The notes under the pieces were generated by a model. The model was given only the letters and a program-made list of their open reading frames with translations, did no database searches and was not told where the DNA came from. The position numbers were made by a program, and so were the translations under genes. A stretch of DNA of 64,000 nt from an uncultured bacterium (lineage in GTDB: Bacteria; Fidelibacterota; UBA2242): positions 64,145 through 128,144 of the forward strand of contig CAZSDW010000002.1 in assembly GCA_964605705.1 (NCBI GenBank), read 5' to 3'. Shown here piece by piece: positions 14,997 through 21,363 of this stretch (position 1 is its first letter; each line of letters begins with the position of its first letter).

Positions 14997-17314
14997 AGCG
15001 CATAATACATATATTGCTGCTAATGTTTTTGGCAAGTCCTCTGACAGCGGTGAATATATCGGGTTACGTGGTCGATCAGGAAACCGGCGAGACAATTATC
15101 GGTGTCAATGTCATGGTCGAGGGCAATGGACAGGGCGCGGCGACGGATGTTAAGGGATTTTTCATTATCCGTAATTTGGAAGAAGGTCAGCATAGCTTAC
15201 GATTTTCTCATATTGCCTATAAACCGTTAATCCAAACTTATACACTCTTTCGGAAGGACCTGCATCTCGGTGAAATTCCATTAGAGCCACAATCAATCCA
15301 GACTGAAGCGGTCGAAGTACTTGGACAGCGTGGCTCCATTATTCAGAAAGATATGGATATTGCCAGTTTTGAGATGGACCCGATTATCCTCACCGAGATA
15401 CCGCAGCTCGGCAAAGATGTTTTTCAGATGGTAAAACTGTCACCAAGCGTGACGGTTTCTGATCCATTTTCACCGCAATATTATGTGCGGGGCAGCGATC
15501 CCGGTGAAAATCTTGTCCAGTTGGATGGAATGACAATCTACAATCCGCAGCATTTTATGGGGTCAAATGCGATTTTCAATCCCTATGCCATCAAAAACAT
15601 TGAAATGCTGGTTGGTGGCTTCGATGCCGAGTACGGAGGACGAAATTCATCGATTTTAAATATCAGCTCAAGGGAAGGTCACCAGAGTGAAGTCCATGGA
15701 GAATTCAGACCGTCGATTTCGGGGCTTTCGGGAGCGCTGGAATTTCCTGCCGGACAAAATGCCACTGCGATGGTTTCCGGTAGAATGCTGACCGATGTGA
15801 GTTTTACAGTGATGATGGGATCACCAAATCTGATGGCGGATTTCAATGGCGCTTATCAGAAGAGCTTTCGTAAAACCAAACTGCGGTTATCAGCATTTTA
15901 TGCCCGGGATTATATGGATTACAGTATTGATGCCTTGATACTGTTTTTCCCCGAGACAATATTTGAGGATTTCAAAGAAGGATATATTGCCAATACAAGC
16001 AATAAGGCTTTGGGTGTTCAAAGCAGCACGGTCCTGACGCCGAACCTGCTCCTGGAATCACATCTCTACTATTCTGGCTCGGAGGTTGACAATAAAACCG
16101 CCTTTAGCTATTCCTTTAAGGATTCGACTTCCGAGACGGACTTTGCCATGGATTACAGGACCCGGATCGAAAATTCCATTAATGATGTTACCTTTAAATC
16201 GCATCTGTCGTGGTTTACATTCTGGAACCAAAGCCTGAAACTGGGAATAGAAATCAACCGCCTGCGGTTCATGAATCGGCTGGGCAGTTTTGATATTCAA
16301 TCTGAGAAGTCGATCTATTTCACGACATTTCAAGCCTTTTTCCTGCAGGATAAAATTGAATTTGGGAAATTGTTATTCAAAATCGGTGTTCGTAATTCGA
16401 GGGAGATTAATACAACTAAGTGGCGTCAGGAACCACGGATTTCAGCAACATTGAAGGTTTCAGACCTGACATTCAAATTGGCTTATGGTCACTATTATCA
16501 GTATTTGACGACATTGGATTCTAAAAACAATGAATTTGTTCAGTTCCTGGATTACTATAATCCACTTGTGGGACTGGACCCACTCTTTTCAATTCACCAT
16601 ATATTTGGGATTGAGGGTAAAATTACTGAACGTCTCGATTATTCTTTTACGGCATATTATAAAGATTTACGGACACTTTACCGGTCCAGTTATGAATCCG
16701 GCGGAATGGCGGTCAATCACCAAAGTCATTTTGAAAAAGGGAGCGGTGAATCCTACGGATTCGAACTCCTGTTTCGGGGTGAAATCGGGAAATTATCCGG
16801 ATGGGTAGGGTACACCTATACTCATGGTACCAGAAATTACCCAATGGTCCTGAATGGAAAAACCGTGCTCTTCGATGGCGACCAACCTCATAATTTCAAA
16901 TCTGTTCTGCTTTATAAACTTACTGAAGATATCACTGCCAGCTCGACACTGCAGTTCACCTCTGGTTTTCCGAGAACCTGGGAAACCGGTATGTTGATGC
17001 ACTATTATTATGATCCGTTGTGGAATGGTCTGGGTGCTGCGCCAACGAATATTACACCGGTTAAAAATAATGTCCGCTACCCGCCGCGACTGATCTGGGA
17101 CATCGGCTGGAAAAAGAAACTGCGGGATGGATTCGGTTACCATCTGGCTGAATATCTGGGCGCTGATGACGCCATTTTTGCAATGACAATACGTAACCTT
17201 CTGTTTCTGCACCGGGACCCGCAATATTACTTCTATTTCCCGAATTATGGTTATTATGGTTTTGATTTTCAATTTCTGCCCAGCATATCAGCAGGTTACA
17301 GTATCAGGTTTTAA
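14993..17314 (+). CDS. TonB-dependent receptor with N-terminal carboxypeptidase-regulatory-like domain
   Basis: Signal peptide, CarbopepD_reg-like region (ISGYVVDQETGETIIGVNV), plug motifs (VRGSDPGENLVQLDGMTIYNP) and a long beta-barrel ending in an aromatic residue. Confidence 0.8.
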   Translation: MKRIIHILLLMFLASPLTAVNISGYVVDQETGETIIGVNVMVEGNGQGAATDVKGFFIIRNLEEGQHSLRFSHIAYKPLIQTYTLFRKDLHLGEIPLEPQSIQTEAVEVLGQRGSIIQKDMDIASFEMDPIILTEIPQLGKDVFQMVKLSPSVTVSDPFSPQYYVRGSDPGENLVQLDGMTIYNPQHFMGSNAIFNPYAIKNIEMLVGGFDAEYGGRNSSILNISSREGHQSEVHGEFRPSISGLSGALEFPAGQNATAMVSGRMLTDVSFTVMMGSPNLMADFNGAYQKSFRKTKLRLSAFYARDYMDYSIDALILFFPETIFEDFKEGYIANTSNKALGVQSSTVLTPNLLLESHLYYSGSEVDNKTAFSYSFKDSTSETDFAMDYRTRIENSINDVTFKSHLSWFTFWNQSLKLGIEINRLRFMNRLGSFDIQSEKSIYFTTFQAFFLQDKIEFGKLLFKIGVRNSREINTTKWRQEPRISATLKVSDLTFKLAYGHYYQYLTTLDSKNNEFVQFLDYYNPLVGLDPLFSIHHIFGIEGKITERLDYSFTAYYKDLRTLYRSSYESGGMAVNHQSHFEKGSGESYGFELLFRGEIGKLSGWVGYTYTHGTRNYPMVLNGKTVLFDGDQPHNFKSVLLYKLTEDITASSTLQFTSGFPRTWETGMLMHYYYDPLWNGLGAAPTNITPVKNNVRYPPRLIWDIGWKKKLRDGFGYHLAEYLGADDAIFAMTIRNLLFLHRDPQYYFYFPNYGYYGFDFQFLPSISAGYSIRF

Positions 17315-17315
17315 G

Positions 17316-18095
17316 ATGATGAAGCAATTAAAAATACTATTTTTTATCCTGGCGGTTTGCCTGATAGGGATGAATACCTGTGATTTGCCGACTGATCCGG
17401 GACCGATGCCCAAAGATTTGATCGATACAAGATTTGAACCGGGACTGAATATTTTTGGTGTTTTGCGGGCGGACAGCGTCAGCGGCAGCTCCTTTATCCA
17501 TGTGGAGAAAGCGCTCCTGACAGAAGAGATGTATAGCGAATCGGATATATTTGATTCGACAGTTATTGTTCAGGTAACTGACACGCTGACCGGTGAAACG
17601 TTTGATTTTAATGCAATTGAGGATACAACGCATCGCGGATACTATTATAATGATGAATTTTATCCCGAGCCCGGACATTATTACACGATTGAAATCCAAT
17701 CGGACAGTTTGCCAACACTGACCGCCGGGACGACAGTTCCGATGCAGCCACAGATCACTTCAAGTACTCTTTCAATTGAAACTAACAAAGTATGCTTTGA
17801 TCTGCAGCTGACTGCGGATACTTATCAATATAACTTTTACCTGTTCGTGGGCGAAGATATCATTGAAAAACAGATTGCCAATGACAAATCCGGTACGACC
17901 ACAGTAAGCATTGATTTTCCCGAATCCGCAGGTTCCCCAACCGGATTGGTTATCATCGGATACGACCGGAACCTGACGGAGTATTTGAATTCCTCACCAG
18001 CTTTTATACCCCAAACCTTTCACGAAATGGTCAATACAGTTAAAAACGGCTACGGATGTTTTGGGTCGCTGGCGGTGATGACAATTGGATTATAG
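17316..18095 (+). CDS. DUF4249-like lipoprotein commonly paired with CarbopepD_reg TonB-dependent receptors
   Basis: Signal peptide plus lipobox-like NTCD, ~260 aa, position immediately after the receptor; the family call is from memory. Confidence 0.5.
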   Translation: MMKQLKILFFILAVCLIGMNTCDLPTDPGPMPKDLIDTRFEPGLNIFGVLRADSVSGSSFIHVEKALLTEEMYSESDIFDSTVIVQVTDTLTGETFDFNAIEDTTHRGYYYNDEFYPEPGHYYTIEIQSDSLPTLTAGTTVPMQPQITSSTLSIETNKVCFDLQLTADTYQYNFYLFVGEDIIEKQIANDKSGTTTVSIDFPESAGSPTGLVIIGYDRNLTEYLNSSPAFIPQTFHEMVNTVKNGYGCFGSLAVMTIGL

Positions 18096-18124
18096 ATGAC
18101 TTCAAATATTCTCCCCGGAGAGTT

Positions 18125-18164
18125 GAAACCTTCACAAGGATAAAAATTATCCTTCTGAAGGTTC
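18125..18164. repeat. Imperfect palindromic repeat, copy A (gaaaCCTTcacAAGGATAA-aaa-TTATCCTTctgAAGGttc); candidate bidirectional terminator / insertion boundary
   Basis: ~18-bp arms with a 3-nt loop, seen directly; a related copy lies at 20227..20297. Confidence 0.6.
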
Positions 18165-18190
18165 AGAGTTCGGAAATGCTAAACTGGGAA

Positions 18191-18643
18191 TTATTTTCTT
18201 AATTTCAGTCTGTTGATTTCCTGCTGGATTTCGGGGATTACTTCCTGATTATGGATGACTTTTTTCCCGTCATGTTTGATTGAGAACAGGTAAAAAACTT
18301 TGCCACCAAATTCTTGGGTGAATTTTTTGTGGGTTTCTTTTTGAAATCCTTTTTCTTTGTAGATTTGGGAAATATGTGTGACTCCACTGACCGGTTTGAT
18401 TTGTAATCCAATGTACTTGTCGAAGATTTTTATAAAGAAATCAACGTTGTACAATCGATCCCAGTTGTCCGGCGCCGGTTCGATTTTAACTTCGAGTAAT
18501 TTTTGTAATTGTCCGTATATTGTATTTATTTCAGTAGTATAGCCGTCAAATGTTCGATCAATAACTAACTGGTATATGTAATTGATGCAATCATCTTCGG
18601 TGATGTTTTCCACTTCAGCAGCGATGACTTCTGTAATTTTCAC
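18191..18643 (-). CDS. Hypothetical 150-aa protein, candidate cognate restriction endonuclease or specificity partner of the adjacent methyltransferase (GTG start)
   Basis: Co-directional and 180 bp downstream of the MTase in an AT-rich island. A possible degenerate PD-...QxK arrangement (NVD...LQIK) is only suggestive. Confidence 0.35.
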   Translation of the reverse strand: MKITEVIAAEVENITEDDCINYIYQLVIDRTFDGYTTEINTIYGQLQKLLEVKIEPAPDNWDRLYNVDFFIKIFDKYIGLQIKPVSGVTHISQIYKEKGFQKETHKKFTQEFGGKVFYLFSIKHDGKKVIHNQEVIPEIQQEINRLKLRK

Positions 18644-18822
18644 ATAGAGTTTGCGTCCGAGTTCTTCGATATGGTCACGTGTTCTGACGTTTTTAAATTA
18701 TATGTTCGCCATGTATCAATATCTCTTTGGGAGAACATTTTCGGATTTCTTCGGAAACGGCGCCGACATTCCGCTTAAAATTCAATTGAAAGCGGTTCAT
18801 TGCCGAGTTAAGGATCCATTCT

Positions 18823-20124
18823 TTAGCCATGAGCTGCTCGCAGATAGTCATGAAATTTGTTCATATATTTGTAATCATAGTGGTCGTCCACATCCGTCAG
18901 ACCATTTTTTAACAAGTGGGCGTTGATAAAGGTTTTATTTTTCAGATAAAGGTAACAAAGTAAATTATTTTCTTCGTCGTGTTTTATTTTGTCGAATTTT
19001 AAAAATACTTTCTGACCATTTAATTTTTCTTTAAGATAATTGACTGCCTTACCGTTTTGTGATTTATCTTCTTTTATACCAAGTAATCGGACGGTTAATC
19101 CATTATTTAATAATATTTTTTCAGGAGAAATAACCTCTTTTACGGTATAATAATCTTCCCGTTCATGGTTACTATTCGTGTCAATCCGTGAACCGAAATT
19201 CAATTTTTTAGGATCAATTTTTTTATCCAGATCATGGGGGTCTTTAAAAATGTAGGTAAGTTTTTGAATTTCTTTTTTGAAGTCGATTTTAAGATTAGAC
19301 TGTTCGAGAAAATCAAAGCTTGTTCCGAATATATCAGACTGATCCATATTTAATTTTTTCCTGATAATTGGAATAAACTCTTTGTTTATTTCATATCCAA
19401 TTGAACTTCTTCCGGTATTTAATGCTGCCAGGGAAGTAGTCCCACTACCCAGAAAAGGATCGAGGACGATATCGCCGACAAAGGAAAACATTCTCAATAA
19501 GCGCCGTGGTAATTCCTCAGGAAACATTGCTATATGTCCATCTTGTTTCGCACCTCCGAAATTCCAGTGTCCTGAAAAGTAGTTATTCCATTCCTCCTTG
19601 GTTAATCTGGATAATTCCTTATTTTCACGGCTTGGTTTTTTGGATGTTCCCAATTTTTTAAAAATTAGAATAAATTCATAATCAATTTTTAGGATTCCAT
19701 TCCTTGGAAAGGGGAAGCTGCCCATTATTGTCGCTCCGCCGCTTGTGTTGGTAGTAGTCACTTTTTGCCAGATAATAGCTCCCATATAGTCGAATCCAAT
19801 ACTTTCACAGAATTTTATAATTTCGGTTCTGATTGGAATGACTTTGTATCTACCATAGTAAATCGACCTTGCGAATTGGTCTCCAATATTGATGCAGAGT
19901 CGGCAACCATTATCTAAAACACGATAACATTCTTTCCATACAAGGTTTAAATTATTTATATAATTTTCGTAAGTATCGTTGTAACCTATTTGTCGTTTAG
20001 TACCATAGTCCTTTAATTGCCAATACGGAGGAGAAGTAATTACTAAATGTACTGATTTTTCGGGCAATTCTGCCATTTGTCGGCTATCGCCGTTGATTAT
20101 TTTATGATGGGTTTTCACGTTCAA
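18823..20124 (-). CDS. Beta-class DNA methyltransferase (N4-cytosine/N6-adenine type) fused to a C-terminal staphylococcal-nuclease-like OB-fold domain
   Basis: SPPY (motif IV) precedes DPFLGSGTT (motif I), the beta-class order. C-terminal ~100 aa (TVRLLGIKEDKS...VFLKFDK...LLCYLYLKNKTFINAHLLKNGL) mirrors the SNase fold pattern but lacks the DTPE/Arg catalytic residues. Confidence 0.8.
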   Translation of the reverse strand: MNVKTHHKIINGDSRQMAELPEKSVHLVITSPPYWQLKDYGTKRQIGYNDTYENYINNLNLVWKECYRVLDNGCRLCINIGDQFARSIYYGRYKVIPIRTEIIKFCESIGFDYMGAIIWQKVTTTNTSGGATIMGSFPFPRNGILKIDYEFILIFKKLGTSKKPSRENKELSRLTKEEWNNYFSGHWNFGGAKQDGHIAMFPEELPRRLLRMFSFVGDIVLDPFLGSGTTSLAALNTGRSSIGYEINKEFIPIIRKKLNMDQSDIFGTSFDFLEQSNLKIDFKKEIQKLTYIFKDPHDLDKKIDPKKLNFGSRIDTNSNHEREDYYTVKEVISPEKILLNNGLTVRLLGIKEDKSQNGKAVNYLKEKLNGQKVFLKFDKIKHDEENNLLCYLYLKNKTFINAHLLKNGLTDVDDHYDYKYMNKFHDYLRAAHG

Positions 20125-20226
20125 AATTTAGCTTCGTACTTAGATTGTATTTTTAATATAATGAAATTCGAAATGATTCACAACAGTCGCTGTGCTCTCT
20201 CATAATGACTGGAAATTTTGGATTTG

Positions 20227-20297
20227 GAACCTTTAGAAGGATAACAATAAATTTGCAGTTTGTCAGAAAATCGGTCAAATATCCTTCTGAAGGTTCC
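20227..20297. repeat. Palindromic repeat, copy B (gaaCCTTtagAAGGATAA - 35 bp spacer - TATCCTTctgAAGGttcc)
   Basis: Same arms as copy A, in direct orientation, separated by a 35-bp insert; directly abuts the DUF2804 stop. Confidence 0.6.
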
Positions 20298-20313
20298 CCG
20301 TTAGTTTATATTC

Positions 20314-21363
20314 CTACCACCGGTTCATGACCTTTTCCGCAAAGCCGAGGAAATCGCTCATGATGATTTCCTTTCCGTCATCCAGAATTGCTTTTCCGGA
20401 AAACCTGCCAATGACCTGGTGCTGATCGGATTGCAGAAACAGCAGGTTGGTGTTGGAATGACGATCAAGAATGGGCTGAAAATCCATCTCAAAGCGGCTG
20501 TCATTGCTGCTGAAAGTCCAGGATTTCAGGTAGCTGTCGGCGGGAATGTGAAATTCCACCTGGTCGAGTTTATGGACCTTACCATTGAAGAATAGCAGGT
20601 TTTCGGTGGCTCTCGACGTATCGCCGAAGCCGTAACCGATATTGAAGCCGAAAAGATCATTGCCGACTTTTCCTGAAGCGGAGCCCCAGTACCAGGTGTT
20701 ATTATAAGTCCAGACGCCGCGTCCCCAGTCGAGCACACCGAAGGATTTCCGCGGATCGAAAGGTATTGTTCGGTCACCGAGCGTCAACTTACCTTCGGCA
20801 GGCATGCAGTTAACTTTCTGGTTATAGTAAAAGGCGTGCTTATTTTTCGGAAAGGGCGTTGCTATGACCATAGTTTCATAACGATCCGGTTGATTTAGCC
20901 GGATATTCGCCTCCAGTGTCTGCTTATCTTTGAAGTTCCTGAAGGCAACTTCGATAAGCCGCTCTTCTTTCTTCCTGATAAATTTCATCGAAACGGTTTT
21001 GTTTTCAAAAAGGACATCGCCGGTTTTTGATGATACGGGCATCTTGAATTTTCCCAAGGGGAATAGGGTAATCAGGTCTTTGGATATCTCTTCCGGTTTC
21101 TCAAAATCAAAGACTGTGGCAGCAATGAATCCCATATAACCATTATCAGCGATGGTAAAGGACACTCCGGCATTATCCGAAAGAATACAGTAGTAATCCC
21201 ATTCCTTGATTTTAAATCTGGGTGCTTTTATATCATTCCGGCTATACTCAAGAATTAGATCTCTCGACCAGCCGGGATTGTTCGGAACGCCATCGGAATT
21301 GAGCAGTCGTGCGGGAGAGATAATTTCAGTTTGCATAGTGCCTCTTTTTCTATTTATAGCCAT
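20314..21363 (-). CDS. DUF2804-like hypothetical protein
   Basis: ~340 aa with Trp/Gly-rich blocks (NNTWYWGSASG, FGFNIGYGFGD) remembered for DUF2804; start may be the internal Met at 21334. Confidence 0.45.
   Translation of the reverse strand: MAINRKRGTMQTEIISPARLLNSDGVPNNPGWSRDLILEYSRNDIKAPRFKIKEWDYYCILSDNAGVSFTIADNGYMGFIAATVFDFEKPEEISKDLITLFPLGKFKMPVSSKTGDVLFENKTVSMKFIRKKEERLIEVAFRNFKDKQTLEANIRLNQPDRYETMVIATPFPKNKHAFYYNQKVNCMPAEGKLTLGDRTIPFDPRKSFGVLDWGRGVWTYNNTWYWGSASGKVGNDLFGFNIGYGFGDTSRATENLLFFNGKVHKLDQVEFHIPADSYLKSWTFSSNDSRFEMDFQPILDRHSNTNLLFLQSDQHQVIGRFSGKAILDDGKEIIMSDFLGFAEKVMNRW

Follow-up and report, generated by a model that had tools for sequence, protein, structure and literature searches.

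In the 64-kb stretch of DNA analysed here (the window) an open reading frame (ORF) of 150 aa starting with GTG is found at 18191..18643 on the minus strand, downstream of a DNA methyltransferase (MTase) gene and on the same strand, as the first-pass annotation had described and as is seen in the ORF listing (gap 179 nt). The ORF had been reported to match no restriction endonuclease (REase) family; searched on its own against Pfam, however, it matches RE_MjaI (PF09568) with E=2.1e-25 and 89.9 bits (cut-off 22.7), the match being limited to profile positions 59-159 of 164. As its sequence indicates, the ORF makes up the 3'-terminal two-thirds of a Type IIP REase gene of the MjaI family (PF09568, PD-(D/E)XK superfamily) and belongs to this family by descent. 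The features of the locus are as follows.

18823..20124, minus strand: cognate DNA MTase of 433 aa, apparently intact, with the N6_N4_Mtase domain at aa 25-255 (PF01555, E=5.3e-44)
18847..19053, minus strand: SNase-like (OB-fold) C-terminal domain of the MTase, aa 358-426 (PF00565, E=2.2e-6, 28.5 bits, cut-off 21)
18191..18830, minus strand: disrupted MjaI-family Type II REase gene, a probable pseudogene, with ATG at 18830 and stop codon at 18193..18191; 212 aa once both indels are repaired
18726..18830, minus strand: N-terminal segment of the REase, residues 1-35 (MAKEWILNSAMNRFQLNFKRNVGAVSEEIRKCSPK), frame A (RE_MjaI profile 1-33; tblastn)
18722..18725, minus strand: first lesion, about +2 nt in a GAGA repeat (AAA-GAGA-TATT), frame shifted (DNA alignment)
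18695..18723, minus strand: middle segment DIDTWRTYN(F/L), in the third frame only, counterpart of the consensus xIxDWxxYYF
18695..18697, minus strand: second lesion, -1 nt at a T3/A5 homopolymer junction (AATTT^AAAAAC) (DNA alignment; frame analysis)
18191..18643, minus strand: 150-aa ORF, GTG-initiated, C-terminal 150 aa of the REase, with a PD-(D/E)XK-type core containing NVD and LQIK

The missing part of the REase was found in a different frame, where a 52-aa ORF (18693..18851, minus strand) matches positions 1-33 of the RE_MjaI profile with E=7.6e-8. As positions 1-33 and 59-159 of the profile are matched in two frames, the 150-aa ORF has to be regarded as the 3' part of a frameshift-split gene. 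In agreement with this, residues 1-37 of the homologues P0001 and P0002 map by tblastn to 18830..18720 with 95-97% identity and their residues from about 46 on map in another frame; in the alignment no other block of the family is as well conserved as the N-terminal segment (residues 1-35). The ATG at 18830 and the stop codon of the MTase gene overlap by 8 nt, as is typical of operons with translational coupling. An in-frame TAA had been placed directly upstream of the GTG, while it is actually located at 18700..18698, 18 codons before the GTG, and these 18 codons (FKNVRTRDHIEELGRKLY) fit the family consensus FKNVRTxxHIEELGRKLY. Since the conserved coding sequence extends 5' of the GTG, this codon is not the true start.

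Repair of a single base in the TTT run results in a protein of 212 aa that matches PF09568 over profile positions 1-159 of 164 (E=5.4e-42, 143.9 bits) and has 4917 homologues, the best of which, the intact 211-aa protein P0001, is 83% identical over 98% coverage. Almost all homologues are 209-213 aa long, and those listed range from 209 to 232 aa with no 150-aa form among them. Aligned with 12 homologues, the repaired protein shows 71-82% identity and is collinear without internal gaps. With this repair, in which one T of the TTT run is removed, residues 36-45 read EILIHGEHII, unlike the consensus xIxDWxxYYF, and we therefore prefer a model with two indels. In the RE_MjaI family W40 and Y43/Y44 are invariant or nearly so, and the third frame, reading DIDTWRTYNL, restores the nearly invariant W40 and Y43. 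Against an HMM built from 42 homologues the two-indel repair (…SPKDIDTWRTYNFKNVRT…) scores 404.6 bits and the one-indel repair 388.5 bits, a gain of 16 bits, and within the 12-residue stretch concerned the identities to 94 homologues amount to a mean of 5.0 (max 9) for two indels versus 1.9 (max 4) for one. Compared to the intact genes in L002 and L003, the DNA of the window carries +2 nt near 18722-18725 and -1 nt at 18695-18697, about 30 nt apart, with the exact placement of the first lesion being ambiguous within a few nt and a 1-nt loss nearby as the alternative. Frame A as sequenced ends at the TAA 18695..18693, so that translation from the ATG stops after 45 residues; instead of forming a single uninterrupted ORF the coding sequence is scattered over three frames. 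The two frameshifting indels near codons 36-46 would thus lead to a truncated product, and the 150-aa GTG ORF would exist only because the rest of the frame has stayed open.

The possible catalytic motif NVD...LQIK, which had been no more than a guess in the first-pass annotation, turned out to be well chosen, as it corresponds to D130, Q143 and K145, all three invariant in 42 homologues; residues of the catalytic D...(Q)xK type are present in the ORF of the window. The intact homologue P0001 was modelled with AlphaFold2 (pLDDT 81.5, pTM 0.57). In this model D130 stands where strand 131-135 begins, and Q143-x-K145 belongs to strand 138-147. Nucleases of the PD-(D/E)XK fold have an alpha-beta-beta-beta-alpha-beta core in which strand 2 begins with the acidic residue and strand 3 carries (E/Q)xK, and the predicted placement would fit this canonical geometry. 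A Foldseek search of the PDB with this model gave top matches that are all PD-(D/E)XK nucleases, including arenavirus and bunyavirus cap-snatching endonucleases, Hjc resolvases (probability up to 0.98), RecE and BstEII, with weak scores (best E=1.7e-3, TM 0.24-0.43), so that the fold comparison counts as suggestive only. The RE_MjaI family has been placed in the PD-(D/E)XK superfamily by sequence analysis (PMC2441816; PMC3424549, the latter listing PF09568).

No NCBIfam model matches the 150-aa ORF, a PDB search by sequence returned nothing significant (best E=0.12), and tblastn against a plasmid collection gave only two distant matches of 26-27% identity, named 'MjaI family' and from Clostridioides, which are uninformative on specificity. 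The homologues carry the NCBI name 'MjaI family restriction endonuclease', and the 150-aa product itself is recorded in Logan only and is absent from the NCBI record.

The partner MTase shows the motif TSPPYW near aa 30 and DPFLGSGTT near aa 222, with SPPY thus N-terminal to the AdoMet motif I (FxGxG). This order is that of a predicted beta-class MTase with an m4C-type motif, and the enzyme is probably an N4-cytosine MTase specific for CTAG. SPPY is characteristic of the beta-class m4C CTAG MTases M.MjaI, M.MthZI, M.BfaI and HVO_0794 (PMC5867850; PMC11033074), which share with the MTase of the window the N6_N4_Mtase domain and the order SPPY then FxGxG; the MTase of the window is paired with an MjaI-family REase. 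HVO_0794 of Haloferax is an orphan CTAG MTase (PMC5867850), and an orphan state is probable here too. In all ORFs of at least 150 aa of the window no other (D/N/S)PP(Y/F/W) or PCQ motif of a second MTase was found.

In contrast to the characterised CTAG MTases, which are 303-364 aa long (PMC5867850), the MTase of the window has 433 aa and carries an extra SNase-like domain at its C-terminus, and from this difference in length the tail of roughly 130 aa can be regarded as an addition. It passes the Pfam cut-off of the staphylococcal nuclease family (PF00565) and aligns to thermonuclease chains, although weakly (E about 0.006), and the catalytic residues differ. Active staphylococcal nuclease uses D21, D40, T41, R35, E43 and R87 for catalysis and Ca2+ binding. 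As far as the weak alignment can be read, the tail has K in place of the Ca2+ ligand D40 and N in place of the catalytic R87, and thus does not show the residues of an active SNase. Across 60 homologous MTase tails conservation is absent from the columns of R35 and E43 but present in other blocks (KKxD..KL.FGS and YLYLxNKTFxNAHL). The tail is therefore probably a non-catalytic OB-fold module with a DNA-binding or structural role and not a nuclease. A literature search on SNase-fused MTases gave no description of the tail. The SNase-like domain might serve to bind DNA, to form dimers or to control the REase, and we only tentatively consider the widespread subfamily of CTAG-type MTases with a conserved degenerate SNase-like domain as an uncharacterised variant of the MjaI system, an idea that is more doubtful than probable.

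A scan of the GTDB species representatives revealed 473 relatives of the REase with about 70% identity, spread over many phyla of both Bacteria and Archaea. For the neighbourhood analysis we took the best 80 of these 473 loci, 72 of which have at least 1350 nt upstream and are informative. The conserved pairing with an MTase in other genomes, which the first-pass annotation had named as a check, is indeed present: an N6_N4 MTase is adjacent in all 72 informative loci among the best 80, and MTases of 423-435 aa are located directly upstream of intact MjaI-like genes. The further question of whether the homologues always occur together with SNase-fused MTases has to be answered with mostly, as 65 of the 72 loci encode an MTase with the same SNase-like C-terminal domain, and the end of the MTase in most cases abuts or overlaps the REase start. 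An REase beside its cognate MTase, conserved across genomes, is what is expected of a Type II restriction-modification (R-M) operon, and the conserved pairing confirms an ordinary and widely transferred one.

Variation in this arrangement was also observed. In L037, L039, L047, L052 and L049, including several Desulfamplus MAGs, the MTase follows the MjaI-like REase and none precedes it; the downstream MTase of L037, L039, L047 and L052 is about 33% identical to that of the window and is devoid of the SNase-like tail. The gene order of these loci is a second operon type in which this REase occurs. A minority of loci contain an extra co-directional gene between the SNase-fused MTase and the MjaI-like REase, as in L016 (2889-3998, 369 aa, with only a sub-threshold NucS_C match, E=0.065) and L064 (3346-3999, 217 aa, without Pfam match), and gaps between MTase and REase are also present in L019, L044, L082, L053, L061, L068 and L069.

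In the window the R-M module sits between a DUF4249-like gene and a gene for a 349-aa protein on the minus strand. Its G+C content is 31-37% (18200-20300) versus 42-46% in the flanks, as would fit a module gained by horizontal transfer. Among the 4-bp palindromes of the window CTAG ranks second in depletion, with 14 sites observed versus 34 expected, and this is compatible with a history of CTAG restriction and modification but not specific to it, as depletion of CTAG is common in bacteria generally. As a separate observation, GGCC is avoided far more strongly than any other 4-bp palindrome in the 64 kb, with only three sites (26074, 28486 and 31949) versus 180 expected from trinucleotide counts (ratio 0.017), which suggests a strong HaeIII-like (GGCC) restriction pressure in the lineage. 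As the window is free of a second MTase motif, the system responsible for it, if any, would be located elsewhere in the genome.

The REase gene might be intact in the organism, with both indels being errors of sequencing or consensus, and the locus would then encode a functional MjaI-type R-M system. Both lesions do lie in slippage-prone contexts, the T3/A5 homopolymer junction and the GAGA repeat, and apart from these two sites the parts of the gene are free of stop codons and highly similar to the homologues; such contexts favour real mutations as well, however, and both indels together with the same split ORFs are reproduced in the Logan assembly of SRR9710702, whose contig SRR9710702_227094 (3675 nt) is 100% identical to 17079-20753 of the window and is an independent assembly, even if it may share sample or data with it. 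Moreover, it would be an unlikely coincidence for two errors to fall within 30 nt in a single gene while the rest of the 64 kb shows none: every other large ORF of the window, the longest having 963 aa, is intact, and as long uninterrupted ORFs fill the window densely, general indel noise is unlikely. A JGI contig from a related population (L086) ends 49 nt past the MTase stop and thus short of the indel site. Given both the indels in the Logan assembly and the intact ORFs elsewhere, the gene is most likely a real pseudogene, and we regard the indels as very probably biological and leave only a small chance to sequencing error. Inactivation of the REase gene with the MTase being kept is common.

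Two other explanations accept the indels and would still assign a function to what is left. The 150-aa ORF might be a free-standing gene translated from its GTG, whose product would be a minimal REase, a subunit for control or specificity or one partner of a new two-component system, for which one could refer to the invariant D...QxK core it has kept and to the native genes of MjaI and MthZI, which start with GTG (PMC2615612). This reading is very improbable, as family-conserved coding sequence continues for 18 codons 5' of the GTG and then in other frames up to the ATG that overlaps the MTase stop, the block that varies least in the family lies within the absent 62 residues, the homologues listed (209-232 aa) do not include such a short form, and a promoter and terminator scan of 18000-20400 gave no excess over shuffled sequences, so that nothing promoter-like speaks for a gene of its own. 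Because these 62 N-terminal residues are missing we judge the 150-aa fragment to be inactive, with only a remote chance that some activity is left in its core. Programmed ribosomal frameshifting might instead yield a low level of full-length enzyme and so regulate a toxic nuclease, and the second site is indeed a slippery-looking A/T run, but two successive shifts of different direction or size would be needed within 30 nt, and the homologues are all single ORFs, none having such an arrangement, which makes this explanation scarcely credible. The family membership, the disruption of the gene, the conserved pairing and the conservation of the catalytic motif are direct observations, and the best explanation overall, which we hold with good confidence, is a frameshift-dead MjaI-family REase gene next to a surviving and now orphan MTase.

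The founding enzyme MjaI (MJ0984) is an active, biochemically verified CTAG-specific Type II enzyme (PMC2615612). Like the CTAG Type IIP REases of the MjaI/MthZI type, the repaired gene of the window encodes about 210 aa that match PF09568 over its full length; as in the RE_MjaI family, it has the invariant D...QxK and is positioned directly 3' of, and in a translationally coupled arrangement with, a beta-class MTase with SPPY. It differs from them in being broken by two frameshifting indels. From this family membership and the literature (PMC2615612) a CTAG specificity of the system can be proposed. In the ancestral operon the stop codon of the MTase gene would have overlapped the start codon of the REase gene, and the system would have methylated CTAG, probably to m4C, while cutting unmodified CTAG in incoming DNA; here the endonuclease would have been inactivated and the intact MTase left as an orphan methyltransferase.

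The first-pass annotation had considered three roles for the 150-aa ORF, which could be a REase of very small size, act in control or specificity, or belong to a new two-component system. Of these the REase kind proved right, but the ORF is not a novel small REase, being the C-terminal part of a frameshifted 212-aa MjaI-family gene. Likewise the suggestion that the module may be undescribed because of this ORF does not hold for a family that is in Pfam, is annotated by NCBI and has a biochemically characterised founding enzyme (PMC2615612). We conclude that the locus represents a known Type II system in degraded form, and that the ORF does not encode a defence partner of a new kind.

In summary, a false lead has been removed, since the ORF that gave the main ground for suspecting an undescribed defence module has turned out to be a piece of a REase from a textbook Type II family, and what remains of mild interest is only the conserved SNase-like tail of the partner MTases. 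For the annotation of similar loci it follows that a small ORF which follows an MTase gene and shows no signature may be what is left of a frameshifted REase gene, and that all three frames upstream of it should be checked. For the R-M systems themselves the locus would add one more case of REase decay with an orphan MTase left behind.
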